Assembly: GCA_045576255.1 (NCBI GenBank)
Contig: JAZNGD010000003.1
Coordinates: 1 to 42,478, forward strand
DNA length: 42,478 nucleotides
DNA from: Candidatus Enterousia sp.
GTDB taxonomy: Bacteria > Pseudomonadota > Alphaproteobacteria > Rs-D84
Direction of reading: 5' to 3'
Part shown: piece by piece, positions 5,398 to 26,366 of the stretch
Position numbering within the stretch: position 1 is the first letter of the stretch
Layout of the letters: the number at the start of each line of letters is the position of its first letter
Made by a program: the position numbers and the translations under genes
The notes under the pieces: generated by a model
What the model saw: only the letters and a program-made list of their open reading frames with translations
Told to the model about the DNA's origin: nothing
Database searches by the model: none

Positions 5398-5743
5398 CAA
5401 AATGTCGGGTTTCTGGTGCCAGGTACCCGACCAACCCCGCAATAACTAAAACGAATACGGTCAACAATTGCCAACGGTATTCAAGCCATCATTAGGCAGC
5501 CATTGCAAGGCGAACGTTGTCGTTCGCAGCGATTCTATCGCCATTCAGTTTTTAGTCGGCTTTTAACGACGCCATGTCGGATTCAACCAGTTTGTCTTTC
5601 ATCATCTGTCGAAACTATGTCAGCCCCATAACCAAATATGACACAAAAATCATATCAGATAATGGTGGAGCTGTGGGGTACCGCCCCCCAGTCCAAAATG
5701 ACTATTGCACAACGGTTTCAGAATCATCACTGCGTTTGCAGCA
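5398..5743 (-). ncRNA. ssrA: two-piece (circularly permuted) tmRNA gene
   Basis: Minus strand. The acceptor piece ends ..GGGGCGGUACCCCACAGCUCCACCA (CCA at 5665-5663). After a 35-nt spacer the coding piece starts GGGGCUG (5627-5621), which pairs with CAGCUCC and includes the G3:U alanine identity pair. Tag ORF is GCG AAC GAC AAC GTT CGC CTT GCA ATG GCT GCC TAA = ANDNVRLAMAA (5527-5492). Terminal hairpin at 5404-5431 plus a U-run. Outer ends are approximate. Confidence 0.85.
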
Positions 5744-5748
5744 CGACA

Positions 5749-5777
5749 ATTATAGTCTTTTAGACTGGAAATTGCAA
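5749..5777 (-). promoter_or_regulatory. sigma70-type promoter of ssrA
   Basis: TTGCAA (5777-5772), a 17-nt spacer, then TATAAT (5754-5749) on the minus strand. Confidence 0.6.
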
Positions 5778-5795
5778 GTTTTTAAGTTATAATAA

Positions 5796-7432: not shown

Positions 7433-8056
7433 ATGGTATCATTAAAAGGCACACAGACAGAAAAAAATCTGTTAATTGCATTTGCTGGCGAATCCCAGGC
7501 GCGCAATCGTTATACAATGTATGCATCTGTCGCCAAGAAAGAAGGATTTCAAGCAATTTCTAAAATTTTCTTGGAAACAGCGGATCAAGAAAAAGAACAT
7601 GCATCACGCTTGTTTAAATTTATGGAAGGTGGCGAACTGGAAATTACGGCTTCTTTTCCTGCTGGTAAATTGGGTACAACGCTGGAAAATTTACAGACTG
7701 CTGCATACGGTGAACACGAAGAAAATACAGATATGTATCCAAAATTCGCACAGATTGCTGCCCAAGAAGGATTTCCTGCAATTGCAGAAATTTTAAAGAA
7801 TATTGGTTTGGCCGAACGTTATCATGAATCAAGATTTCGTGCGCTGGCCGAAGCAATCGAAGACGGTACATTGTTCAAACAAGATAAAATTGTTATGTGG
7901 CGTTGCACAAATTGTGGTATGTGGCATATCGGCACCGAAGCGCCAACTGTATGTCCAGCATGTTTGCATGAACAGGGCTATTTTATCAGCGAAGGCACAA
8001 CGGCGCGCTGTGACACAAACGAAGGTTTCTGTGAATATTCTTCGATTGATGAATAA
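7433..8056 (+). CDS. rbr: rubrerythrin
   Basis: Ferritin-like diiron motifs (E..ARNRY, EKEHA, EHEE, ERYHE) and a C-terminal rubredoxin-type CTNCG...CPAC. AAGGAG RBS. Confidence 0.9.
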   Translation: MVSLKGTQTEKNLLIAFAGESQARNRYTMYASVAKKEGFQAISKIFLETADQEKEHASRLFKFMEGGELEITASFPAGKLGTTLENLQTAAYGEHEENTDMYPKFAQIAAQEGFPAIAEILKNIGLAERYHESRFRALAEAIEDGTLFKQDKIVMWRCTNCGMWHIGTEAPTVCPACLHEQGYFISEGTTARCDTNEGFCEYSSIDE

Positions 8057-8329: not shown

Positions 8330-8406
8330 CGGGGTGTAGCTCAGCCTGGTAGAGTACTTGCATGGGGTGCAAGGGGTCGCAGGTTCGATTCCTGTCACCC
8401 CGACCA
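8330..8406 (+). tRNA. tRNA-Pro(GGG)
   Basis: 77-nt cloverleaf: acceptor CGGGGTG/CACCCCG, anticodon loop ATGGGGT, T-loop TTCGATT, encoded CCA. Confidence 0.92.
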
Positions 8407-8613
8407 TATAAATTCAAATCGGCATTTATGCCGATTTTAATTTATATAGTGGGTATAACGGATTGAGCCTTTACATTGAGAATCAATGTACAGGTTCGAC
8501 TATGAGTAGACGTTCGCGCAAGTAGTGCAGCGAACGTCCAACGAATGCCCCGCAGTCCTGCATAGCAGGCGAGGGATTCCTGTCACCCCGACCATATAAA
8601 TTCAAATCGGCAT
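8387..8613 (+). repeat. 39-bp direct repeats (8387-8425 and 8575-8613) duplicating the tRNA-Pro 3' end and bracketing a 149-bp structured insert
   Basis: Exact repeat gattcctgtcaccccgaccatataaattcaaatcggcat. The insert has hairpins at 8472-8490, 8509-8538 and 8557-8569 and the motif AGGTTCGA..GAGTAGA shared with the insert at 26191-26326. Confidence 0.7.
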
Positions 8614-8701
8614 AAAAGGCATTTTTTGTGTTTTTGTTCTTGACAAACAATGTATTTGTATTACATTTTACTGTGTAAAGAATAAAAAAAGAGTGATTAG
8701 C

Positions 8702-9784
8702 ATGAAAAAAAAGACCGCGTTTACATTAAGTTTATTCGCATTGCTGGGTGCAGGAACAGGTTTGTCGATAAACAATAAACAAAAAAAAGATTTTGAAAAA
8801 AAACTGAAAACAGTTTTGATTCCTGACGCGGAAAAGAAATTTGACAGTTTGCAACACAAAAATAACGCATTAAATGACAGTATTGTCAAATACCAGGACG
8901 CGGTCGCTTTGCAGAATCAAAAATTGGATTCGGTTCGCAACGCAAACGCCCCAAGTTATGCGGCAAGACATCAATGCAGTGGTATAAGTGGTATATATGA
9001 ATTGCCTGATGATTTTGGTGAAATTTATTATTTGACGCTTGGGTTATATACTGATTGGTTTGTAAAAACTTATGATGTATTGCGTCAAGATTTGGGCAAT
9101 AACGAAACCGAAGCCAATGGAATTTGGGACAAGGAAGTGTATTCATATAACACAAACATATCAAAAGACACATTAAAAATGTACGAAGATTTGTATCATT
9201 TAGTAGGGAACAATTCCAATTTCTTCCCACGTGTTTTGGGCTATCAAGGGGACTTTGTTCTTAAACATCCTGTAAGTGTGCCAAATTTGGAATTGATATG
9301 TACTACGGAAGAAGAAATTCGTGAAAACAACAAATCTGTTTACAAAGATGTTACGACTTATGATACAAAAGACCTGGACGATTTTTTCTCTAAAACAATA
9401 TGTGGTATAAGAAACACTGTCTGCACATCTGATGTATCGTTTTTGGATTTTTATGAAGCGTTTGCCACCAAAAATACACACGTTGGATTGAAATTGGCTG
9501 TGTTAAAATCTTTGTTGTCGTTCACAGATGCCGTTGATAATTCGCAAGAAGTATTTTGCAATATGAAATTAAGGGCATTAGACGCACAAGTAAAGGCTTT
9601 GTTGCCAATCATAGAAACAGAATATGTTTTTGCACAGAAAAAGGACAGTTTGTCTGAAAAATTAAATGCGTTCAAATCAGAAAAAGATGAAACAGAAAAA
9701 CTTGTTTCTGAACAAGCACAAAAATTGCACGATTTGAAAACAAAAAATATAAGAAAGCTGAAGAAAGAAAATCGCAGCAGATAA
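8702..9784 (+). CDS. secreted or membrane-anchored coiled-coil protein, hypothetical
   Basis: The ATG at 8702 gives MKKKTAFTLSLFALLGAGTG, a signal-like N-terminus (the track start at 8693 is GTG). Both ends are K/E-rich and coiled-coil-like. Confidence 0.65.
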   Translation: MKKKTAFTLSLFALLGAGTGLSINNKQKKDFEKKLKTVLIPDAEKKFDSLQHKNNALNDSIVKYQDAVALQNQKLDSVRNANAPSYAARHQCSGISGIYELPDDFGEIYYLTLGLYTDWFVKTYDVLRQDLGNNETEANGIWDKEVYSYNTNISKDTLKMYEDLYHLVGNNSNFFPRVLGYQGDFVLKHPVSVPNLELICTTEEEIRENNKSVYKDVTTYDTKDLDDFFSKTICGIRNTVCTSDVSFLDFYEAFATKNTHVGLKLAVLKSLLSFTDAVDNSQEVFCNMKLRALDAQVKALLPIIETEYVFAQKKDSLSEKLNAFKSEKDETEKLVSEQAQKLHDLKTKNIRKLKKENRSR

Positions 9785-11297: not shown

Positions 11298-11322
11298 AAA
11301 CGCCCGATTGGGCGTTTATTTT
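11298..11322. terminator. bidirectional intrinsic terminator
   Basis: aaacgccc-gatt-gggcgttt hairpin. Confidence 0.7.
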
Positions 11323-11783
11323 ATTTCCATTTTATCTAATATTTGTTCAAGCTTCTTTACAGAACTGTTTATGCAACCACGCCCAGTCCAGTGAAGTAAT
11401 TCTTGACCTGTTTCATTGTCGGAAATAGATAAATTAAATTTTGACCACCAAAAACCATTCAGCGAACACCAAACGGGTCTGAACTTAGGGTTGGTCTCTT
11501 TCATAAAAACAATATAACGTGCTTTGGATAAATCTGTTGCAGCCAAAACAGACTCGGTCCCTTCGGCGGTGATGTATGTTGTTGAAATAGTGGCTTTGTG
11601 ATGTCCAATGGTTAATTTATATCCCATATCTTCCATAATTTCTTTTGTTTTAAGACGCATCAAATCGCCACCAGCGTCCGCATAAATTATTTCGTTTTTA
11701 TCTAACGAATTTGGTTTTACATAAATAGTGTTGCATGCGGACACAGAAAACAGAACTGAAAGATATAAAAATATTTTCCCCAT
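11316..11783 (-). CDS. lipoprotein, hypothetical
   Basis: Signal peptide with lipobox (LFSVSAC). Confidence 0.6.
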   Translation of the reverse strand: MGKIFLYLSVLFSVSACNTIYVKPNSLDKNEIIYADAGGDLMRLKTKEIMEDMGYKLTIGHHKATISTTYITAEGTESVLAATDLSKARYIVFMKETNPKFRPVWCSLNGFWWSKFNLSISDNETGQELLHWTGRGCINSSVKKLEQILDKMEIK

Positions 11784-11810
11784 AACAAAACCTGCGTTTA
11801 ATATAATTTT

Positions 11811-11855
11811 TGGTGTGCCCAGCGGGATTCGAACCCACAGTCTTCGCCTTCGGAG
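11811..11855 (-). pseudogene. 3' half of a disrupted host tRNA-Arg(CCG), the left island junction
   Basis: The reverse complement reads CTCCGAA-GGCGA-AGACT-GTGGGTTCGAATCCCGC-TGGGCAC-A-CCA. It ends exactly at the anticodon loop and its acceptor strand pairs with the 5' half at 18420-18458. Confidence 0.88.
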
Positions 11856-11940
11856 TTATATGCTTTGACTGATGTCAAATTCGCTATAATCCTTTGTTTG
11901 TAAGGCGTTGGGCGTGCCTGTATTTATGCTTAAAATTTTG

Positions 11941-11959
11941 TGGCTACCGTATGGCTACC
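11941..11959 (+). promoter_or_regulatory. putative integrase arm-type sites, left end (2 x TGGCTACC)
   Basis: TGGCTACC at 11941-11948 and 11952-11959, with an 11-bp period. The same motif occurs three times at 18269-18296. Confidence 0.45.
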
Positions 11960-11999
11960 TTTTGATATAAAATCAAAGCAAATTTCAAGCAAAATCTTC

Positions 12000-12076
12000 T
12001 GGCGTACCCAGCAGGATTCGAACCTGCAGTCTTCACCTTCGGAGGGTGACGTGTTATCCAGTTGCACCATGGGTAC
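12000..12076 (-). tRNA. island-borne intact tRNA-Arg(CCG)
   Basis: 77-nt cloverleaf: GTACCCA/TGGGTAC acceptor, anticodon loop CTCCGAA, T-arm GCAGG-TTCGAAT-CCTGC, encoded CCA. A TATAGT -10-like box lies about 9 nt upstream. Confidence 0.9.
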
Positions 12077-12240
12077 GTACCGTCAGTATACTATAATAAA
12101 ATTTAATAAAAATCAATCTGCAAGCACATAAATTTAATTGGTTGCTTCATACGACGTAAATATATTTGTTTCTACGGTTGAAAACAGTGAATTCATACCT
12201 ATATTAATAAAGCAATTTAACATAAAATAAAGGTGATAAA

Positions 12241-14271
12241 ATGAAATTAAGGAAAGTTGAAATTGAAAATTTTCGGTCTATAAAAAGTGCTGATATTGAT
12301 TTTGAAAAATACCCATGTCGTATTTTATGGGGAGTTAACGAAAGTGGAAAGAGCAACATAATCAAGGCATTAATGACACTTGATCCAAAATATGACATTC
12401 AACAACATTCTGCCCAGGATAAAAGAATGCCATCAGACGAAGAAACCGACTTTAGTCATCAATATTGGGTTGATTTTTGTTTTGCCTTGGATGATGCAGA
12501 ATTGTTAGGTGTTTATAACAAATTAAAAACTTTGTTCTTATCCAAGAATATTGAAACAGAAAAAATAATCAAAACCGCAAAAAAACAATTTACATTAAAC
12601 GAACTTGTCGCTGCATCAAAAAATATTGTAAAAAGGGTCAATTTGGACAGTGAAAATAACGACCGTCCCGTTTTGTGTTATACTGGTGATTTCACCGCTA
12701 CGCCCAAACCAGAAAAAGAAACATACGAATTGCTAGATGGTTGGTATCAAATACCTGTCAATGTAACAAGTATTAAAATTGAACCAAATAAAATAATTCA
12801 AAAAGGAAATTATAAATTTATAAAATTTGACGACTATGCAGAAAATTATACAGAAGCAGAAATCGCCCAAATGAAAGCCAAACCATTAACTATCTCTGAA
12901 TTGCGTAAATTGGTGCGTGCAGAAATTGAAAATATGGCAAATGCCAAAGTGCCAAATATAATTTCATGGGATGCACTGAAAGACCAAACATTTCATTCCG
13001 ATATACCAATGCAAACTTTTTTACAAAATCCAAGTGCTGAAGCATATTCACACTTCAAAAGTATGTGTTTGTTGGCATCCAAGTATTTTCCGCATAATAA
13101 TGATGCAGAAATTGTTAAAGTTTTTGAAGATGCAAAAAAGGCGAATAGACTGGAAAGTTTATACAGCCACATAGAAGCGGAATCTACCAGATATTTACAA
13201 TCTATTTGGAAAGGGTTTGAAAATGAAGAATTGGTTATAAACACCTCCAGAGGCAACGATTTGATTGGAATTAGTGTCAAACATGTTGGAAGATTCGCCA
13301 ATAAAATACCAACATCATATAGAAGCGACGGATTTAAAAAATTCTTAAAACTTATGTTAACCCTGTCGCTCAAGGTTAAGTATTGTGATATAAAAGATAC
13401 AATAATATTAATTGATGAAGCGGAAACGTTTTTGCATCCGTCTGCGGCAGAAAATTTCCGTGACGAACTAATCAAACTGTCGCAAATTAATAATAATCGC
13501 ATTGTTTTTTCAACACATTCACCGTTCATGATAGACGACAATAATATTGAACGCCATATCATAGTAGAAAAAGATGGCGAAACAACGTCCATTAAAGACG
13601 GACAAGAAGGTCGGTACTTCAAAGAAGAAGAACTTTGGCAAAAAATGGGTTGTCCAATATTGCGTGCCTTTGCACCTAAGAATTTGCTGTTTGAGGGTTG
13701 GGACGATAAAATTTTATACACTGTAGGGCTTAATAAACTTACAGAAGCAGAGCGCAAGATTTTAAAACCTGGACCGACGGCAAAATTAGGGGTTGCTTAT
13801 AGTGACGGTGCACAGAAAATGAGAATTTATGCCCCGACTTTTCAATGGGCGGATTCAAAGCTCATAATTTTGGCTGATTCTGATGATGCGGGAAAAGAAG
13901 AGAAAAAGCATTTTGTGGACAATAGGCTGTGGTGTAATGATACGTTCTTCACTTTTGCAGATTTGGGCGGTTTAGATAACGCCACAGCAGAAGATTATTT
14001 GGTGCAAGACAAGATTGACGAAGCTGTAGCGAAGTTAAAGGCGGAATTTCATATTGAAGATGCACCAGATTTCACAGTAAATGATATGCGCGTTATGCAA
14101 CAGGTTAAAACTTGGTTAAAAAAGAAGTTTACCAGTGAAGAAAAATTGAAGCCAGTGCTGAAAAAATTCAAGGATTTCTTATTTGACGGGTTAACAGAAG
14201 CGGATATCAAAGATGAATATAAAACTGTGCTCAGTGAATTGTCAAAGAAAATAAAAGCTATCAAAAAATAA
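12241..14271 (+). CDS. OLD-family nuclease (N-terminal ABC-type ATPase plus C-terminal TOPRIM)
   Basis: MKLRKVEIENFRSIK start, Walker A GVNESGKSN, Walker B IILIDEAETFLHP, H-loop FSTHSP, TOPRIM Glu (LLFEGWDDK) and DxD (ILADSDDAGKE). AGGTGA RBS. Confidence 0.85.
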   Translation: MKLRKVEIENFRSIKSADIDFEKYPCRILWGVNESGKSNIIKALMTLDPKYDIQQHSAQDKRMPSDEETDFSHQYWVDFCFALDDAELLGVYNKLKTLFLSKNIETEKIIKTAKKQFTLNELVAASKNIVKRVNLDSENNDRPVLCYTGDFTATPKPEKETYELLDGWYQIPVNVTSIKIEPNKIIQKGNYKFIKFDDYAENYTEAEIAQMKAKPLTISELRKLVRAEIENMANAKVPNIISWDALKDQTFHSDIPMQTFLQNPSAEAYSHFKSMCLLASKYFPHNNDAEIVKVFEDAKKANRLESLYSHIEAESTRYLQSIWKGFENEELVINTSRGNDLIGISVKHVGRFANKIPTSYRSDGFKKFLKLMLTLSLKVKYCDIKDTIILIDEAETFLHPSAAENFRDELIKLSQINNNRIVFSTHSPFMIDDNNIERHIIVEKDGETTSIKDGQEGRYFKEEELWQKMGCPILRAFAPKNLLFEGWDDKILYTVGLNKLTEAERKILKPGPTAKLGVAYSDGAQKMRIYAPTFQWADSKLIILADSDDAGKEEKKHFVDNRLWCNDTFFTFADLGGLDNATAEDYLVQDKIDEAVAKLKAEFHIEDAPDFTVNDMRVMQQVKTWLKKKFTSEEKLKPVLKKFKDFLFDGLTEADIKDEYKTVLSELSKKIKAIKK

Positions 14272-14287
14272 TTAAATTATGTGGCTT

Positions 14288-14713
14288 TTATAAATGCACG
14301 ATTTTGACTTCTGGGAAATGTTGTTGCAGGTATTCCGCAACAAGTCGCCTGTGGCAATTTTCAGCAGTCTTTTCTGCACATAAAAAACACACCTTATTTA
14401 TGGTGTCGGGCGTGAACAGGTTTTCTATCCGACGTTTTGTAAGTATGTCGTTGAAAATCTGTTCGTATTCCGCCCAATTTATCGTGCCGTTCTTGATTTT
14501 GGTTAACAAATCAAGCGTTGGTGCCAGTTCTGGCATATATTTATATCTGTCGCCAAGAATACGCTGTAAATTCGTGCCAGATGTCCAAGGCACAAATCGC
14601 GACTGTCGCCACAATCGAACATCAATCACGGTATTAACATCAACAGCATTTAGTATTTCTGCGAAAATTTCTTTGTTTTTTCCGTTTGTTCCGATTGTGT
14701 ATATTTTAAGCAT
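14288..14713 (-). CDS. DUF488-family protein (YeaO-like)
   Basis: IYTIG..., VIDVR, and the C-terminal FLCAEKTAENCHRRLVAEYL signature typical of DUF488. The start overlaps the upstream stop (TAATG). Confidence 0.75.
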   Translation of the reverse strand: MLKIYTIGTNGKNKEIFAEILNAVDVNTVIDVRLWRQSRFVPWTSGTNLQRILGDRYKYMPELAPTLDLLTKIKNGTINWAEYEQIFNDILTKRRIENLFTPDTINKVCFLCAEKTAENCHRRLVAEYLQQHFPEVKIVHL

Positions 14714-15117
14714 TATTTATTCCATTTAACCTTTTGGGCGATAGGGTAATGATGTCTGGTATTAATAAGACCAGTGTCAGCATAACAGTAATTTTCTGGG
14801 TCTTTTATGCTGTAAGTGCGTCCATGTGCATATCCATTGCCGGCATTTTTTATAATCCATGTTTTATGTCTTGTATAATGTCCTTTGTCTGCTCGGACAA
14901 CTGCATCTGTGTCGTTCAAATCTGTGATATAAACAAAGTCCGTTAATTCAAAAACACATTTCGCTTTGCCTTTTTTATATCTGTCAGAATCTGTGTCCAG
15001 ACTGCAATGGTTAACATACCAATAGCCACCTTTTTCTGTGCATTGTTTTTCATTTAAAAAAGTGGCACATCCGGCAAGTGTTGTTATTATTGCCATTGAT
15101 GTCAAAATGTGTTTCAT
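14713..15117 (-). CDS. lipoprotein, hypothetical
   Basis: Signal peptide with lipobox ITTLAGC. CAGGAG RBS. Translationally coupled to the DUF488 gene. Confidence 0.7.
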   Translation of the reverse strand: MKHILTSMAIITTLAGCATFLNEKQCTEKGGYWYVNHCSLDTDSDRYKKGKAKCVFELTDFVYITDLNDTDAVVRADKGHYTRHKTWIIKNAGNGYAHGRTYSIKDPENYCYADTGLINTRHHYPIAQKVKWNK

Positions 15118-15140
15118 TTAACAACTCCTGTGTTGGGTTA

Positions 15141-15335
15141 AACAAAAACCACCGAGAAAAATCTAGGTGGTTGGAGTTTTCTAACAATCATTAAGAATTG
15201 CGCGCCTTATTCAATATATTCAACGCACTCCAACCATAAGGTTGGAGAGAATGTTTCGCCATCTCGGGCGCTTAATGAAGGGTTAGAAAGCCCAATGCAA
15301 GAACACCTTGCATCAATTTCAATGTATCAATTTTT
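15141..15335 (-). promoter_or_regulatory. structured leader or ncRNA with an intrinsic terminator just upstream of the lipoprotein RBS (candidate attenuator or riboswitch-like element)
   Basis: Minus-strand RNA. Terminator is AACCACC-12 nt-GGUGGUU plus UUUGUUU (15172-15141). CUCCAACC occurs twice and its complement GGUUGGAG once, which allows mutually exclusive pairings. There is an 8-bp long-range helix UCAUUAAG/CUUAAUGA and further local hairpins. Confidence 0.45.
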
Positions 15336-15878
15336 TTAGGAAAAATCAACCGGTTTTATCTGGTTTTTGCTTTTTGGTGAAATTAAATCTATGTCTAAAA
15401 TAATTGTATCGTTTGTGATTCTTGTGCCGTCAATTTTTAATTCTTTGGTGATATACGAATAAACACCATCAGAATATATTTTTGTTATCATAATATCGTC
15501 ACCGTATTGTTTTGATGCGGTTTGTTTATCTGTTAAATCATACCATATATCCATTTTTAAGACCGTGGACAGCCCTTTAAGGGTTTCTTGGATGTTGGGT
15601 AGGGCAAAGTGTGCTAAACGTACTCCAAGGATGAAATGTGCGTGCATGTTTAATCGACTGCCTACTTCCTTGAATCCTATTAGCAGAAATTCTTTGTCGT
15701 ATCGTTTGTGCCAGTGGCGACCAAGTAATTTGCGAAACAATCTACAAAATACGGGCTTGCACCGTTTTTGTAGTTCGGCTTTTGTTTTGGGTGCGGTTTT
15801 GAAGCGAATAGATATAAAATATGCTTCGTTGCCACCCAGTTTTTTTAACCAATTTTGTATTTCTGTTTTACAGTGCAT
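15336..15878 (-). CDS. HUH-type Rep-like protein (putative replication or relaxase-type initiator)
   Basis: Three motifs in the canonical order: YFISIRFKT (motif 1-like), NMHAHFILG (HUH) and GVYSYITKE (YxxK). The assignment rests on these motifs only. Confidence 0.45.
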   Translation of the reverse strand: MHCKTEIQNWLKKLGGNEAYFISIRFKTAPKTKAELQKRCKPVFCRLFRKLLGRHWHKRYDKEFLLIGFKEVGSRLNMHAHFILGVRLAHFALPNIQETLKGLSTVLKMDIWYDLTDKQTASKQYGDDIMITKIYSDGVYSYITKELKIDGTRITNDTIILDIDLISPKSKNQIKPVDFS

Positions 15879-16178
15879 TGCGGTTCTCTGTGTGTAGCAA
15901 AAATTCGGTCTTTTTTGTGTTGAATTTGTTGGTTTTTATACTATGCAAAAAGTGTCAAATTTGTCAGATTTTAAACACCGGTAAAAGTGTAAGAATTGTA
16001 AGATTTCTACTATTAAAATTCTAACTGCAAAAATTTTTTTGCAACAGTTGAATTTTAATTTTAAAAGTCCAGAAAATAGCCATTTTTTAGCACATTTCAT
16101 AGAATTGTTGTTATTTGTATAACTGCCAACATTTACGACAAACAGACGCATGTTTTTTTGACGTTTTTGGGTGCGTTT

Positions 16179-16385
16179 TTAAGCGATTGTTGTGAACTGG
16201 TTTGTGCGGTCACATTTGTTGCCGTCTAAATATGCTTGAACATCGGTCATAGCGTATAAAACACGACGTCTGACCTTGGTCCATTTAATCGGGCATTCAC
16301 GATTTGTACGCCAGCGTTCAATAGTGTTCTTTTTTACCTGCAGTAAGTCTGCCAGTTGTTGTGTTGTGATGTATTCATTTTGCAT
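16179..16385 (-). CDS. AlpA-family helix-turn-helix regulator/excisionase
   Basis: 68 aa. TTQQLADLLQVKKNTIERWRTN..P is typical of AlpA/MerR-type HTH proteins in P4-like islands. GGGAG RBS. Confidence 0.8.
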   Translation of the reverse strand: MQNEYITTQQLADLLQVKKNTIERWRTNRECPIKWTKVRRRVLYAMTDVQAYLDGNKCDRTNQFTTIA

Positions 16386-16461
16386 ATCCTTGCTCCCTTT
16401 GTTTTGTTGTTTACAGGGGCAATATATGTCTAAAAATATCCAAATAAAAGTTTATAAAAAT

Positions 16462-16494
16462 TTAGCTAGCTAATGGTTCGTGTTAGCTAGCTAA
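16462..16494. promoter_or_regulatory. twin palindromic operator candidates
   Basis: The perfect 12-bp palindrome TTAGCTAGCTAA occurs at 16462-16473 and 16483-16494, 21 bp centre to centre, upstream of the AlpA-like gene. Confidence 0.5.
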
Positions 16495-16500
16495 TACGAA

Positions 16501-17052
16501 TTACCACATACAAATCCAATCGTAAATTGTTTTTGCACTGCGTTTGATTCCTTGTTTTAAAAGCTCTGCTTGCAAGCAAACAGCTTCGTCAAAACTACGT
16601 TTTTTGCCATTCGCAATCCAAATTTCTTTCGCTTTTTCTTTAATTTTGTTCTTTTTTATAGCAGTAATTTTTGCACCACGCTTTTTTGCGATATATTCCA
16701 GTCTATACAATAAGTGAATTGTATGTGCATATAGTAAACTTTTTAATTCTTCTTGTGCTGATGTCTGAGGGCTGGTTGAGAGTATGAAATAATATTTAAC
16801 AGCACTTTCAAAATACATTTGATCTACATACGATAAGTTTGTGTTATTTTGTAATGATTCATATATGGAGTCAAGCGGCACGTTAAACAGTGTCATATAT
16901 TTTTCGGTTATTAAAGCAATAGATGTATCATTTAATTTATCAAACAATCTGTAGTGATTGTTCTTTTTGGCTCGGTTTAATGCGTTCTTTATCTGTTGTG
17001 TAAACTGTTCTTTACTTAATTCACTGAGTGAAATAATGTTGTTCTGGGTCAT
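16501..17052 (-). CDS. island hypothetical protein
   Basis: Long ORF between the integrase and AlpA-like genes. No recognisable motifs. Confidence 0.6.
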   Translation of the reverse strand: MTQNNIISLSELSKEQFTQQIKNALNRAKKNNHYRLFDKLNDTSIALITEKYMTLFNVPLDSIYESLQNNTNLSYVDQMYFESAVKYYFILSTSPQTSAQEELKSLLYAHTIHLLYRLEYIAKKRGAKITAIKKNKIKEKAKEIWIANGKKRSFDEAVCLQAELLKQGIKRSAKTIYDWICMW

Positions 17053-17064
17053 ATCTGTCCCTTA

Positions 17065-18249
17065 TTATTTTTGTTGGTTGATTGCGGCAAACATTGCGTC
17101 TGTGCCTTTTTGAATACTCTCCAGAACCGCGTTGTTCCCGCGTCTTGCATAAACGGAAATTGCCGCAGGTGATTTATCGCCCAAAGCTTTCCCTATCATT
17201 TCATCTGTTGAGCCACTCATTGCTTGATAACTGGCAAATGTTCTGCGTAAATCGTGCATACGCAGGTTTTCTATTCCGGCACGTTTCAAGAAAGCACGCC
17301 AAGCGATTTGTGGGTTTGCCAAATGTCCGCTTTCTGAACGTTCGCTTGGGAATATCCATTCACTGGTTGCGCGTTCTTTCATGTTTGACAGGTAATCTAA
17401 TGCCTGTTGTGAAAGTGGCACCAGTTGCGGTTTTCCTGTTTTTGTTTTTGCGATACTTAAGGTTTTACGTTCAAAACTGATGTCAGACCAGCGAAGTGCT
17501 TGCATATTGCTACGTCGTTGCCCAACAAGCAGACATAGCATTACGAAATCACGAAACCACTTTTGTGGTTCTGCATTCAACGCTTCAATAAAATGTGGAA
17601 ATTCGTCTTCTTTGATATAGCGGTCTCTGGACACTTCTTTAAATAATTTTATACGTGCCGCAGGGTTGGTTGTTGGCAAATCCCAATCAATCGCCTTATA
17701 AAACATTTGTCGCATTAATTTTAACGCACGATTGGCAGAATATACACTGTTCAATTCCAGTTTCAACCTGTTGTGCATACGTTCCATGTCACCACGGGTA
17801 ATGTCAAGCATCTTTCGCCGTTTAATCTCGGACGGAATATACAACCGCATAATCATTTCGTCCATGTTTTGTGATTTTTTGTTTTTTCTTACCAATGAAT
17901 GAGCAGGGTAGTAAAAATCGTCAAAAAATTGTTGTACCGTTACATCTTGACGCAATTTCTTTTTCTCGTCATTTGGGTTTTTACCGTCATTGACGATTTT
18001 CATATTTTCAATCAACAAATCACGTGCGTCTTTAAGGGATGTGTTCTCAGAATCTGCCAAATTAACCCATATCTTGCGTCCATTTACGCGTTTAATCAGA
18101 TAATATATTTTTGTTGTTTCGCCGACACGCACAGCCAGATTTTTGGTTGTTGTATCATAAACGGTATATCTGTCACCTTTGTCGGCAAATGGTAATTCTG
18201 CGATTCTCGCTTCGGTAAAATTGAAATGGGTTTCTTTTGGTCTTGGCAT
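17065..18249 (-). CDS. int: tyrosine site-specific integrase, P4-type (DUF4102-like arm-binding N-domain)
   Basis: N-terminus FADKGDRYTVYDTTTKNLAVRVG. Catalytic residues: GQRRSN (Arg), HDLRRT (His-x-x-Arg) and ISVYARR (Tyr). Confidence 0.93.
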   Translation of the reverse strand: MPRPKETHFNFTEARIAELPFADKGDRYTVYDTTTKNLAVRVGETTKIYYLIKRVNGRKIWVNLADSENTSLKDARDLLIENMKIVNDGKNPNDEKKKLRQDVTVQQFFDDFYYPAHSLVRKNKKSQNMDEMIMRLYIPSEIKRRKMLDITRGDMERMHNRLKLELNSVYSANRALKLMRQMFYKAIDWDLPTTNPAARIKLFKEVSRDRYIKEDEFPHFIEALNAEPQKWFRDFVMLCLLVGQRRSNMQALRWSDISFERKTLSIAKTKTGKPQLVPLSQQALDYLSNMKERATSEWIFPSERSESGHLANPQIAWRAFLKRAGIENLRMHDLRRTFASYQAMSGSTDEMIGKALGDKSPAAISVYARRGNNAVLESIQKGTDAMFAAINQQK

Positions 18250-18268
18250 AACTTGTCCTTTTGTGTTG

Positions 18269-18296
18269 TGGCTACCACGGCTACTGTATGGCTACC
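18269..18296 (+). promoter_or_regulatory. putative integrase arm-type sites, right end (3 x GGCTAC) in the int upstream region
   Basis: TGGCTACC at 18269-18276, GGCTAC at 18279-18284 and TGGCTACC at 18289-18296, with a period of about 10 bp, 20-47 bp upstream of the int start codon. Confidence 0.45.
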
Positions 18297-18419
18297 ATTT
18301 AAGATAAAACTAGACGGTTATGATATAAAACATTATAAAGCTATAAAGCCCAGAAATCAAGGGAAAATATAAAAATAAGTAAAATTTGATAAAACCCAAG
18401 AAAAGTGTAGAGCATAAAA

Positions 18420-18458
18420 TTCGGAGGGCGACGCATTATCCAGTTGTGCTATGGGCAC
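18420..18458 (-). pseudogene. 5' half of the disrupted host tRNA-Arg(CCG), the right island junction
   Basis: The reverse complement reads GTGCCCA-TA-GCAC-AACTGGATA-ATGC-G-TCGCC-CTCCGAA. No 3' half follows it. Its acceptor strand pairs with 11815-11821. Confidence 0.88.
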
Positions 18459-18513
18459 TACGCGATGAATTATAAATAAACGCAAATAAAAAGCAAGAAC
18501 TCTGTTCCAAGAC

Positions 18514-19299
18514 TTATCTTTGTATTGCGTGTTTACATTTGCGTAATTGTTGTAATATCCCCAGCCCAGTCAATATGGCGCGCTGATTTAATTTGTGTTT
18601 TGTAATATCTTGATAGCATTCGATATATTCGACATAGTTATCAGATGGATACGCATACAACGTTTGCAAAACAGAAAAATTTTCATTGCACAACGCGACA
18701 GAATCCAAATCAATCAAAGCGGTTAATTGCATATCATTATTTACCAACAAATTTTTTGGTTGAATATCGTTGTGTGACAATACTTGCTGTCCTTTTGTAG
18801 AAAACATTCGGTATAAGCAACCCTTTATTTTGGTGGTAATCTTTGGCGCAATCTGCATTTTATTATAAGTAAAGATTTCGTATGCGTATTTGCCCCATCC
18901 AAGATCAAGTTTTTTGTGCGGTATTTCAGATATTTCTTTTTGGGCATACATAGTTTGTTTGTATATATCGAAAATTTGTTTCTTTGATATTCCTTGTTGG
19001 ATAAATTCATGTAATGTTTTGTCTGGACAGTATTTATATGTTTCAAAAAAAGCATCACAAAACATATGTGTTTTTATTTTTGGCACTGAAACATCAAGTT
19101 GTCGTAACAATTGGCTGATTTTATAGTTGTGCTGGATAATGTTCATATCGTTAAATTTGCACACAGTTGTACCTTCGTCTGTTTCGGCCAGTAAAACGGT
19201 CCCGACGCGACCGATTACATCGGGCTGTCTGATGTTTTTTGCTTGTGGGTATACACTGCGAATTGCGTCGATATAAAATGTTTGTGGATATTTCTGCAT
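18514..19299 (-). CDS. aminoglycoside/choline-kinase-family phosphotransferase (APH-like)
   Basis: Catalytic loop LSHNDIQPKNLLV and IDLD motif. Confidence 0.7.
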   Translation of the reverse strand: MQKYPQTFYIDAIRSVYPQAKNIRQPDVIGRVGTVLLAETDEGTTVCKFNDMNIIQHNYKISQLLRQLDVSVPKIKTHMFCDAFFETYKYCPDKTLHEFIQQGISKKQIFDIYKQTMYAQKEISEIPHKKLDLGWGKYAYEIFTYNKMQIAPKITTKIKGCLYRMFSTKGQQVLSHNDIQPKNLLVNNDMQLTALIDLDSVALCNENFSVLQTLYAYPSDNYVEYIECYQDITKHKLNQRAILTGLGILQQLRKCKHAIQR

Positions 19300-19305
19300 G
19301 TTAAT

Positions 19306-20377
19306 TTAATTTTGTTGTAAAGACGCCAACATAAAATCGTCCAAATCCCCATCCAATACGGCATCAGAATCTGTTCTTTCGACATTTGTTCGAACATCTT
19401 TTACCAGCTGATACGGGTACAGTACATAATTTCTGATTTGGCTGCCCCATTCGATTTTTTTCTGGGCGGCTTTTGCGGCATTTTCAGCTTCTGCCCGTTT
19501 TTGCAGTTCTAATTCATACAGTTTGCTGCGCAACATTTTCATTGCGGTTTCGCGATTTTGAATTTGGCTGCGTTCGTTTTGGCAAGTGACAACAGTGTTT
19601 GTCGGCAAATGAGTTATACGAACTGCGCTGTCTGTTTTATTGACGTGTTGTCCACCTGCGCCAGACGACCGATAAGTATCAATACGTAAATCCTTTTCAT
19701 TTATTTCTATTTCAATAGTATCATCAATATCTGGCCATACATCAACAGAAGCAAAACTGGTTTGTCTTTTCCCGTTTGCGTTAAAAGGCGAAATTCTGAC
19801 CAATCTGTGTACGCCGATTTCGTTTTTCATCCATCCGTACACCCGTTCACCGGAAATGCGATATGTGACATTTTTAACACCTGCAACATCGCCTTCGTGT
19901 TCTTCGATTACTTCCACAGAAAAATTATGTCGTTCTGCCCACCGCGTATACATACGCGACAGCATTTGCGCCCAATCTTGCGCTTCTGTGCCACCGGCGC
20001 CAGCCTGAATAAACAAGAAAGCGCCATTGTTGTCTGCTGGTTCGCGAAACAGGGTAATAAATTTTGCGCGATGGGCATTTTCTGCCAAGCTTTCAATAGC
20101 AGAAATAATTTCAGGGTCATCCGGCGCAATTTCATATAATTCTGTTAAGTTTTTGTAATCAGATTCTAATTTCAGCAATTCATTCAAGTTTTTTTCAAGA
20201 TTGGATTTTTTTTGCAATACCGTACGTGCGTTTTCTGGGTTGTCCCATAAATCGGGGGCGTTTACTTGGGTATCAAGCTCTAAAATCTGGGATTTCAGTT
20301 TTTCGGGGTCAAAGAAACCCCCTGACGGCGCAAATGTCGTCAAAGATTTGTTGAAAAAATTCGTTTGTTATAGCCAT
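19306..20377 (-). CDS. prfB: peptide chain release factor 2, with programmed +1 frameshift
   Basis: The short frame-0 ORF MAITNEFFQQIFDDICAVRGFL ends at AGGGGG TTT CTT TGA C (20323-20308). The +1 frame continues DPEKLKSQ... and carries the SPF and GGQ motifs. Confidence 0.93.
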
Positions 20378-26068: not shown

Positions 26069-26156
26069 GGAGCGTTGGCAGAGTGGTAATGCAGCAGATT
26101 GCTAATCTGTGACCGAAATTTTTGGTCCATAGGTTCGAGTCCTATACGCTCCGCCA
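26069..26156 (+). tRNA. tRNA-Ser(GCU)
   Basis: 88-nt class II tRNA: acceptor GGAGCGT/ACGCTCC, anticodon loop TTGCTAA, long variable arm GACC..GGTC, T-loop TTCGAGT, encoded CCA. Confidence 0.92.
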
Positions 26157-26366
26157 TAAAGATTTAACCCACCGTCAGGTGGGTTTAATTATGTGCGGAC
26201 GTTGGACGAGAACCGTCAAGGTTCGATACGGAGTAGATTTGGGAAGTGCAACGCACCCAAATCGTCACGAGTGGAGAGGGGTATCCCCGCCCACTGTGTG
26301 GGCAGGGGAGTCCAGTCCTTTTGCGCCCGCCATAAAGATTTAACCCACCGTCAGGTGGGTTTAATT
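26151..26366 (+). repeat. 40-bp direct repeats (26151-26190 and 26327-26366) covering the tRNA-Ser 3' end plus its terminator hairpin, bracketing a 136-bp structured insert
   Basis: Exact repeat ccgccataaagatttaacccaccgtcaggtgggtttaatt. The insert shares the AGGTTCGA..GAGTAGA motif and a hairpin at the same position (26236-26263) with the tRNA-Pro-linked insert. Confidence 0.7.

Follow-up and report, generated by a model that had tools for sequence, protein, structure and literature searches.

A small integrative island splits a host tRNA-Arg(CCG) gene in its anticodon loop and probably carries the replacement tRNA

The window, by which we mean the whole 42,478-nt stretch of DNA that was analyzed, contains an island of 6,564 bp (11856-18419) that lies between two copies of a 7-bp core and is bordered at each end by one half of a tRNA-Arg(CCG) gene. 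The features of the island and its borders are compiled in Table 1. A tyrosine integrase gene is located near one end, a complete second tRNA-Arg(CCG) gene near the other, and the space between them is occupied by genes for an OLD-like ATPase, a DUF488 protein, an excisionase-like protein and three further open reading frames of unassigned function, of which the 134-aa frame has no family match in Pfam, PADLOC or PHROGs. Neither PHROGs nor Pfam returned a match to phage structural, lysis or repressor genes within the island; the element is thus an island rather than a temperate phage. The best identity of its integrase in a collection of phages is no higher than 27%, and exact look-ups of the integrase and of the flanking kinase-like (APH-family) protein matched no record.

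Table 1. Features of the island and of the divided host tRNA gene, in positions of the window.
Feature	Position	Strand	Remarks
Host tRNA-Arg(CCG), displaced 3' half (anticodon loop to CCA)	11811-11855	-	core copy 11849-11855; with 18420-18458 identical (77/77) to the tRNA of L092/L093
Int-distal attachment arm (P' arm), 144 nt between core and island tRNA	11856-11999	-	direct repeats GGCTACC 11942-11948 and 11953-11959
Complete island-borne tRNA-Arg(CCG)	12000-12076	-	77 nt; ARAGORN and Rfam; identical in L001, L002 and L004 (different host)
Promoter-like boxes of the island tRNA	12090-12116	-	TTGATT 12111-12116, 15-nt spacer, TATAGT 12090-12095
OLD-family-like ABC ATPase, cargo, 676 aa	12241-14271	+	adjoins the island tRNA
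DUF488 protein, cargo, 141 aa	14288-14713	-	Pfam DUF488 1.5e-18; PADLOC PDC-M45C 1.2e-36
ORF, 134 aa	14713-15117	-	lipoprotein-type signal peptide by sequence reading alone; 98% identical in L001
ORF, 180 aa	15336-15878	-	94% identical in L001
Helix-turn-helix protein, excisionase/AlpA-like, 68 aa	16179-16385	-	PHROG 66 (excisionase and transcriptional regulator) 8.6e-9; L001 homologue HTH_17
ORF, 183 aa, directly downstream of int	16501-17052	-	similar-sized gene at the same position in all relatives
Tyrosine integrase, 394 aa, N-terminal arm-binding domain	17065-18249	-	Pfam Phage_integrase 8.5e-24, Arm-DNA-bind_3 3.5e-7
Int-proximal attachment arm (P arm)	18250-18419	-	GGCTACC 18270-18276, GGCTACT 18279-18285, GGCTACC 18290-18296
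Promoter-like site in the P arm	18360-18332	-	
Host tRNA-Arg(CCG), displaced 5' half (positions 1-39)	18420-18458	-	second core copy 18420-18426
Host tRNA promoter	18459-18500		just 5' of the host 5' half

Two observations concern the background against which this island is seen. The 183-aa reading frame downstream of int is only 45% identical to its counterpart in the related island L001 (L001 11198-11773), compared with 94-98% for the other island proteins, so that the island is locally mosaic. Elsewhere in the window (5401-5781, minus strand) a permuted two-piece alphaproteobacterial tmRNA with the tag AANDNVRLAMAA is found, which fits the Rs-D84 or Candidatus Enterousia-like affiliation given by the names of related metagenome-assembled genomes.

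The 676-aa product of the gene next to the island tRNA contains an N-terminal ABC-type ATPase of the OLD/AAA_15 type. It matches Pfam AAA_15 (1e-25; residues 1-431) and AAA_21, and the PADLOC profiles Old (1.2e-28) and AriA (1e-25); one GajA profile aligns as far as residue 557, and the comparison with the OLD structure deposited as PDB 6P74 (5.9e-7) covers the ATPase motifs only. In the C-terminal 223 amino acids no TOPRIM profile from Pfam or PADLOC was detected. The protein sequence does contain the motifs FEGWDD and DSDDAG, from which the C-terminus may be read as a TOPRIM domain; a single-sequence AlphaFold model was unusable (pLDDT 47). An AriB protein (TOPRIM, DUF4435), either separate or fused, is absent from the OLD-like protein and its neighbors, where only AriA-type ATPase profiles match. 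The initial annotation, made from the letters of the sequence, had placed the tRNA beside an OLD-family TOPRIM nuclease; of this, the adjacency and the OLD/AriA/GajA-like ATPase stand, while the TOPRIM part finds no profile match.

The nature of the target becomes apparent from the two junctions. The 45-nt stretch at the left junction is 85% identical to the 3' half of the island tRNA, and the 39-nt stretch at the right junction is 82% identical to its 5' half. Both are bounded by the 7-bp core TTCGGAG (plus strand), which represents the anticodon loop CUCCGAA, and when they are joined at this core they yield a 77-nt tRNA-Arg(CCG). The host attachment site hence overlaps a tRNA gene that is cut in its anticodon loop. 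On the island side, the core is embedded, in the direction of the tRNA strand, in the order AGCATATAA, core, TTTTATGCT; these flanks, which bear no resemblance to a tRNA, make up an imperfect inverted repeat. The identity shared by the attachment site of the island and its target amounts to 7 bp only, and therefore no tRNA is rebuilt at either junction; indeed, neither ARAGORN nor Rfam called a tRNA at these positions. GGCTACC repeats are present on both arms and are read as putative arm-type integrase sites. Related islands possess equivalent GTTAGCCATAGGTTAGCC repeats about 30 nt past their island tRNA, and the distance between the island tRNA and the int-distal arm repeats is about 30-35 nt in all cases.

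The complete tRNA-Arg(CCG) inside the island was called by ARAGORN and by the Rfam tRNA model at the same coordinates, and it is the sole intact CCG tRNA within the window. The initial annotation had reported such an intact 77-nt tRNA about 145 bp inside the left junction, preceded by a TATAGT box, and this description is borne out: its 3' end is 144 nt from the junction, and the TATAGT box is accompanied by a TTGATT box. A sigma-70 consensus scan made no call at this promoter because the spacer measures only 15 nt, and a promoter-like TTGaTT...TATAAT pair precedes the island tRNA in all relatives examined. Between the island tRNA and the rejoined host tRNA there are exactly 13 differences in 77 positions, the same number that had been counted by hand in the initial annotation. 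Six compensatory stem pairs and the discriminator base had been held responsible for nearly all of these differences; five of the pairs are indeed fully compensatory (linear positions 3:71, 11:25, 12:24, 30:42 and 52:64) and the discriminator base is changed as well (G in the island, A in the host), but the sixth pair (51:65, C-G to U-G) is changed on one side only, and the unpaired position 9 had been overlooked. Most hosts share the discriminator G of the island tRNA, the host represented by the window has an A, and both bases are natural in this clade. The anticodon stems of the island and host tRNAs read UCGCC/GGCGA or UCACC/GGUGA and differ by one pair, and the stem of the island tRNA is the natural stem of the host of another related island, L017.

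Both the island tRNA and the rejoined host tRNA can be folded into a cloverleaf. Alignment of 12 distinct tRNA-Arg(CCG) sequences from islands and hosts shows 100% pairing in the acceptor, anticodon and T stems, with two-sided changes in 11 pairs; when the partners are slid by one to three columns as a control, pairing falls to 36-51%. The 12 tRNAs do not vary in the anticodon loop or at G18, G19 and A20, the last of which is a known identity element of the arginyl-tRNA synthetase in E. coli. This covariation, by which the cloverleaf is kept, and the occurrence of the same island tRNA next to a different split host tRNA support the earlier view that the island tRNA would be a diverged, functional-looking homologue, and they speak against a copy of the host gene. 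It is presumably expressed and charged.

Unoccupied versions of the locus were reached via homologues of the genes that flank the island in the window. In a close relative (L092, L093), in which the 155-aa flanking protein is 93% identical and the flanking DNA about 87%, an intact tRNA-Arg(CCG) is present that is identical over 77/77 nucleotides to the joined halves; it is located 28 bp from the gene for the 155-aa protein, the same spacing as that of the 3' half in the window. A blastn comparison of L092 with the window breaks into two pieces, to 18497-18420 and 11855-10581, which overlap by the 7-nt core. A more distant empty site (L090) carries a tRNA that is identical to the rejoined host gene at 76 of 77 positions, in a gene order that is that of the window: prfB is followed by the APH-family kinase-like gene, the tRNA and the 155-aa gene, and a further gene takes the place of the CorA-like gene of the window. 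Further unoccupied loci (L102-L108) come from another species. The split gene is thus a genuine host tRNA-Arg(CCG), and the claim of the initial annotation that the island disrupts a host tRNA and supplies a replacement is upheld by empty sites that hold the intact host gene. Exact scans of metagenome contigs gave zero matches both for the rejoined host tRNA, for which the nearest distant empty site is one base off, and for the circular attP junction (GTAGAGCATAAAATTCGGAGTTATATGCTTTGACTG). Judged by the occupied and empty alleles only, the island may be mobile at present.

The surroundings of the tRNA-Arg locus are variable in their own right. In L094 (4789-10000) and in L091, from another species, about 5 kb of glycosyltransferase genes without an integrase are inserted between an intact tRNA-Arg(CCG) and the 155-aa gene; this spot is therefore a hotspot for other insertions as well. 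In L001 (9200-17850, compared with 11300-20350 of the window), the tRNA-Arg locus and its island are inverted relative to prfB and the 155-aa gene, and the kinase-like (APH-family) gene is absent at the locus.

Related islands were sought by scanning one genome per species by integrase alignment, followed by ARAGORN and local alignments. Four contigs, L001-L004, contain the same island as the window (integrase 96%, OLD-like protein 97% and DUF488 protein 97% identical). The genes around the L001 island are arranged unlike those of the window, and while the island tRNA of L001 is identical to that of the window, the split host tRNAs share only 58/77 positions (19 differences). The same independence of the two tRNAs can be seen in further pairs: L011 and L017 agree fully in their island tRNAs and at 60/77 positions in their host tRNAs, while L001 and L012 have identical host tRNAs and island tRNAs that share 63/77.

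A common layout is found in every relative checked with an integrase identity of at least 52% and enough flanking sequence (L001, L007, L008, L010-L013, L016 and L017). The 5' half of the host tRNA, ending at the anticodon loop, is located 171-444 bp upstream of int; a complete tRNA with the same anticodon is positioned 5.5-9.6 kb downstream; and the 3' half of the host tRNA follows 130-144 bp past the island tRNA wherever the sequence reaches that far. The layout is incomplete at two of these loci, as the L007 contig stops inside the island tRNA and the L008 contig is without the 5' half. Seven of the nine loci have tRNA-Arg(CCG) as their target and two have tRNA-Arg(UCU), of which a further 5' half is present in L015. 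A mirrored version occurs in L021 (integrase 46%; 19760-20300 and 9714-9775), where a tRNA-Leu(UAA) is split, the complete island tRNA-Leu adjoins the 5'-half junction and int adjoins the 3' half. In L018 (integrase 61%), the 5' half of a tRNA-Gly(UCC) was found at the junction (7470-7520) and no island tRNA within 10 kb. In L019 (integrase 50%), the 3' half of a tRNA-Thr(UGU) adjoins int at about 1050-1100.

The integrases of the relatives are 46-63% identical to that of the window, their targets are tRNA-Arg(CCG), tRNA-Arg(UCU) and tRNA-Leu(UAA), and their cargo is different. It comprises replication-type genes of the Toprim-AAA_25, DUF3631 or DUF3987 kind, a Slam homologue, UvrD-like helicases with a zinc ribbon, KAP NTPases, an ankyrin protein and genes without an assigned function. 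The combination of OLD and DUF488 genes is confined to the window-type island (L001-L004 among the relatives compared), and in seven other island lineages the tRNA is preserved next to cargo of an unrelated kind. Since the tRNA is kept while the cargo varies, it belongs to the integration module and is not tied to the OLD-like gene.

The split target, its 7-bp core, the empty site, the tRNA that travels with the island and the layout common to the whole family together make it highly probable, in our view, that the island tRNA is the replacement-tRNA component of an integration module. The lambda-type tyrosine integrase would use the 7-nt anticodon loop of tRNA-Arg(CCG) as its crossover segment, and the attachment site of the island shares only these 7 bp with the target and brings no tRNA half along. 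Lacking such a half, integration would leave two dead host-gene halves at the junctions, and the decoding of CGG would pass to the complete, separately promoted tRNA-Arg(CCG) of the island, which lies about 30 nt beyond the int-distal arm-type sites. Together with the small excisionase-like protein, Int would excise the island, and the two halves, once reunited, would make up an intact host gene again. The genes for the OLD-like ATPase and the DUF488 protein lie in a slot for variable cargo, which adjoins the tRNA by chance.

The advantage of carrying a whole tRNA likely lies in the fact that only the universally conserved anticodon loop is needed in the target, so that a mismatched hybrid tRNA is avoided in a diverged host; this strategy would likely allow the island to move between species. 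With a canonical attachment site and a crossover in the anticodon loop, the acceptor and anticodon stems of the resulting tRNA would be hybrids assembled from two lineages. When the 5' half of the host and the 3' half of the island tRNA are combined, 1-3 non-standard stem pairs arise in five of six host-island combinations. It should be noted that the hybrid of the window's own tRNAs contains G-U wobbles only, and this host-range rationale is hence not forced by the host represented in the window. The island tRNA may be essential, and it is plausible that it is the only CGG decoder in the genome, since genomes of this group are smaller than 1 Mb, CGG codons are used and all relatives checked have kept the tRNA. 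Genome sizes below 1 Mb are reported for the order Rs-D84 (PMC12306168), and CGG is rare but present in host genes, for instance four times in prfB.

Other readings of this locus need to be weighed against that of a replacement tRNA. Fragments of tRNA genes in the neighborhood of tRNA genes are common scars, and before any comparison was made it was formally possible to see the host's resident gene in the intact tRNA, and in the two halves a pseudogene or what is left of an older, decayed element. This proposal is refuted by L092, L093 and L090, which hold the joined-halves sequence between the same flanking genes and are devoid of the island tRNA, and the intact tRNA accompanies the island into other hosts; we see practically no chance that it is correct. 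Most islands that integrate into tRNA genes rebuild their target (PMC4383910), and the additional tRNA might then be mere cargo that boosts the decoding of CGG. Yet both junctions carry half genes at which no tRNA is called, the sequence adjoining the host 5' half is not tRNA-like, attachment site and target share just 7 bp, and the full gene, 144 bp inside the island, differs from the host gene in both halves. As the genes of the island contain few CGG codons (two each in the OLD-like gene and int), such a benefit to decoding is not apparent either, and we regard a canonical island of this kind as exceedingly improbable.

A functional coupling between the variant tRNA and the OLD-like protein was raised as a speculation in the initial annotation by analogy to AriB of PARIS. 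The island tRNA might, for example, resist a nuclease that has the host-type tRNA-Arg as its substrate, and OLD of phage P2 offers a further analogy. OLD-type TOPRIM nucleases do cut tRNAs: OLD of P2 severs anticodon stems at paired CNG motifs, and tRNAs of phages rescue the cell (PMC12445682); AriB is likewise described as cleaving tRNA (PMC11464382). The genes are adjacent in the window, and the island and host tRNAs differ by one pair of the anticodon stem. However, this stem in the island tRNA matches the natural stem of the L017 host, and a paired CNG motif is missing from both stems when they are read according to the rule given in PMC12445682. The C-terminus of the OLD-like protein matches no TOPRIM profile. 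Moreover, the host-type tRNA is split and hence not produced in an island-bearing cell, which leaves nothing for a nuclease to discriminate, and OLD together with DUF488 occurs only in the island type of L001-L004, while the seven other lineages keep the tRNA beside Slam, UvrD-like, KAP NTPase, ankyrin or unassigned genes. The proposed link is not supported, and we reject it as very unlikely. An addiction-like arrangement, in which the island is indispensable because its loss would remove the only CGG decoder, is a somewhat less remote but still unlikely idea. Deletion of the island tRNA from an integrated island should be deleterious if no other copy exists; the clade has genomes below 1 Mb (PMC12306168), and its host genes use CGG, as the four codons of prfB illustrate. 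On the other hand, occupied and empty alleles coexist in close relatives, and dependence of this type would be a side effect of the integration design and not the work of a dedicated module. Because the intact allele corresponds to the halves joined at the core, precise Int-mediated excision should make the host gene whole again and leave the cured cell unharmed; the idea would hold true only where the halves decay. Such a case is L013, in which the displaced host 3' half (17022-17066) is truncated after the T-loop, so that excision could no longer restore the host tRNA.

Islands of this type might also serve as vehicles by which essential tRNA alleles are replaced horizontally where genomes are reduced, with a resident island tRNA eventually becoming the chromosomal gene; we put this forward as a tentative possibility that we would not yet favor. 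Two loci point in this direction. In L013, where the host 3' half is already truncated, the island tRNA can no longer be replaced through excision. The other is L109 (1-230, compared with L102 9780-10020), an unoccupied native locus with host flanks on both sides, whose tRNA-Arg(CCG) is identical over 77/77 nucleotides to the island tRNA of L011 and L017. The 153-aa protein encoded next to it is identical to that of L102-L108, which carry the ordinary host allele, and the flanks that belong to the island tRNA are absent. This constellation suggests gene conversion between an island and a chromosomal tRNA, which may have proceeded in either direction. If it ran from the island to the chromosome, integrative elements would drive the turnover of a core translation gene. 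In genomes of less than 1 Mb, a horizontally acquired gene may be the only decoder of a codon, with effects of such acquired tRNAs on tRNA-based phylogenies and on estimates of genome completeness.

A different kind of insertion was encountered in the vicinity of other tRNA genes. Inserts of about 120-190 bp are present directly after the terminators of tRNA-Pro(GGG), of tRNA-Ser(GCU) and of the displaced tRNA-Arg 3' half of L001, where two tandem copies are found (window 8387-8626 and 26135-26366; L001 16470-16800; L017 1-140). Behind each insert, the tRNA 3' end and the terminator are repeated (88% identity in the window), and a hairpin GAACN..NGTTC with GA-N3-4-GAGTAG after it is common to the inserts. 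The GGCTACC arm repeats are absent from them. The 3' ends of group II introns or a known RNA were considered, and Rfam yielded nothing at or near the gathering scores. A structured RNA or miniature elements flanked by att sites are possible explanations.

When the island is set beside known systems, its cargo protein resembles the OLD family (OLD of P2; Thermus scotoductus OLD, PDB 6P74) and AriA of the PARIS AriA/AriB system in its N-terminal ABC ATPase. It departs from these systems in that its putative TOPRIM domain is without profile support, the AriB partner is absent and targeting of a tRNA is not indicated; furthermore, the gene is missing from related islands that retain the tRNA. With the canonical islands that integrate into tRNA and tmRNA genes, as defined by Islander (PMC4383910), the island has a tyrosine integrase, a crossover centered on the anticodon loop (Williams 2002, as cited in PMC4383910) and tRNA fragments at the island ends in common. 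In the canonical islands, however, the attachment site bears a fragment of the tRNA gene and the full gene is regenerated at one junction, whereas half genes are found at both junctions here. Judging from the rules laid out in PMC4383910, detection schemes that look for one full tRNA gene and one fragment could reject the island or confine it wrongly to a 189-bp stretch reaching from the tRNA to the 3' half, and island finders may thus misplace or miss such elements in genome annotations.

In Sinorhizobium meliloti, phage-related sequences are described in which a foreign tRNA gene takes the place of that of the host (PMC11476347; also PMC12429752). Going by this description, these elements resemble the island in their alphaproteobacterial host and in the substitution of the tRNA, and differ from it in being prophage-like and in residing in a large, free-living genome. 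For the island studied here, the layout of the family, the empty sites and the host-to-host transfer of one island tRNA are documented.

The closest counterpart is the tRNA-dependent lysogeny that has been demonstrated experimentally for actinobacteriophages such as Fionnbharth, LeBron and Gaia (Guerrero-Bustamante and Hatfull, mBio 2024, PMC10865867); Lactobacillus prophage Lj965 is cited there as an earlier candidate. In these phages, the common core is short and no tRNA is rebuilt, the tRNA of the phage complements the loss of the host gene, and its deletion makes integration lethal (PMC10865867). The likeness to the island extends to the tyrosine integrase and its arm-binding domain, to the overlap of the target with a host tRNA gene, to a short common core (about 8-17 bp in the phages, 7 bp here) from which no tRNA is rebuilt, to a tRNA carried by the element in place of the disrupted one (CCG, UCU and Leu-UAA among the relatives here) and to integrases of the same family that differ in their tRNA target. 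There are differences as well. The element described here is a 6.6-kb island devoid of phage structural, lysis and repressor genes, and its relatives have P4-like primase modules; the host is a gut alphaproteobacterium with a reduced genome; the targets are tRNA-Arg(CCG), tRNA-Arg(UCU) and tRNA-Leu(UAA); and the position of the tRNA, immediately past the int-distal arm sites, is constant. The requirement for the tRNA, proven by experiment in the phages, would presumably hold for the islands as well, which by all appearances integrate in the same tRNA-dependent manner in a non-phage setting. A design that combines a split tRNA gene with its replacement has so far been proven only for actinobacteriophages; it would thus also be used by small non-phage islands with varied, partly defense-like cargo in uncultured gut Alphaproteobacteria (Rs-D84), in which a conserved integration module spans at least three tRNA specificities.
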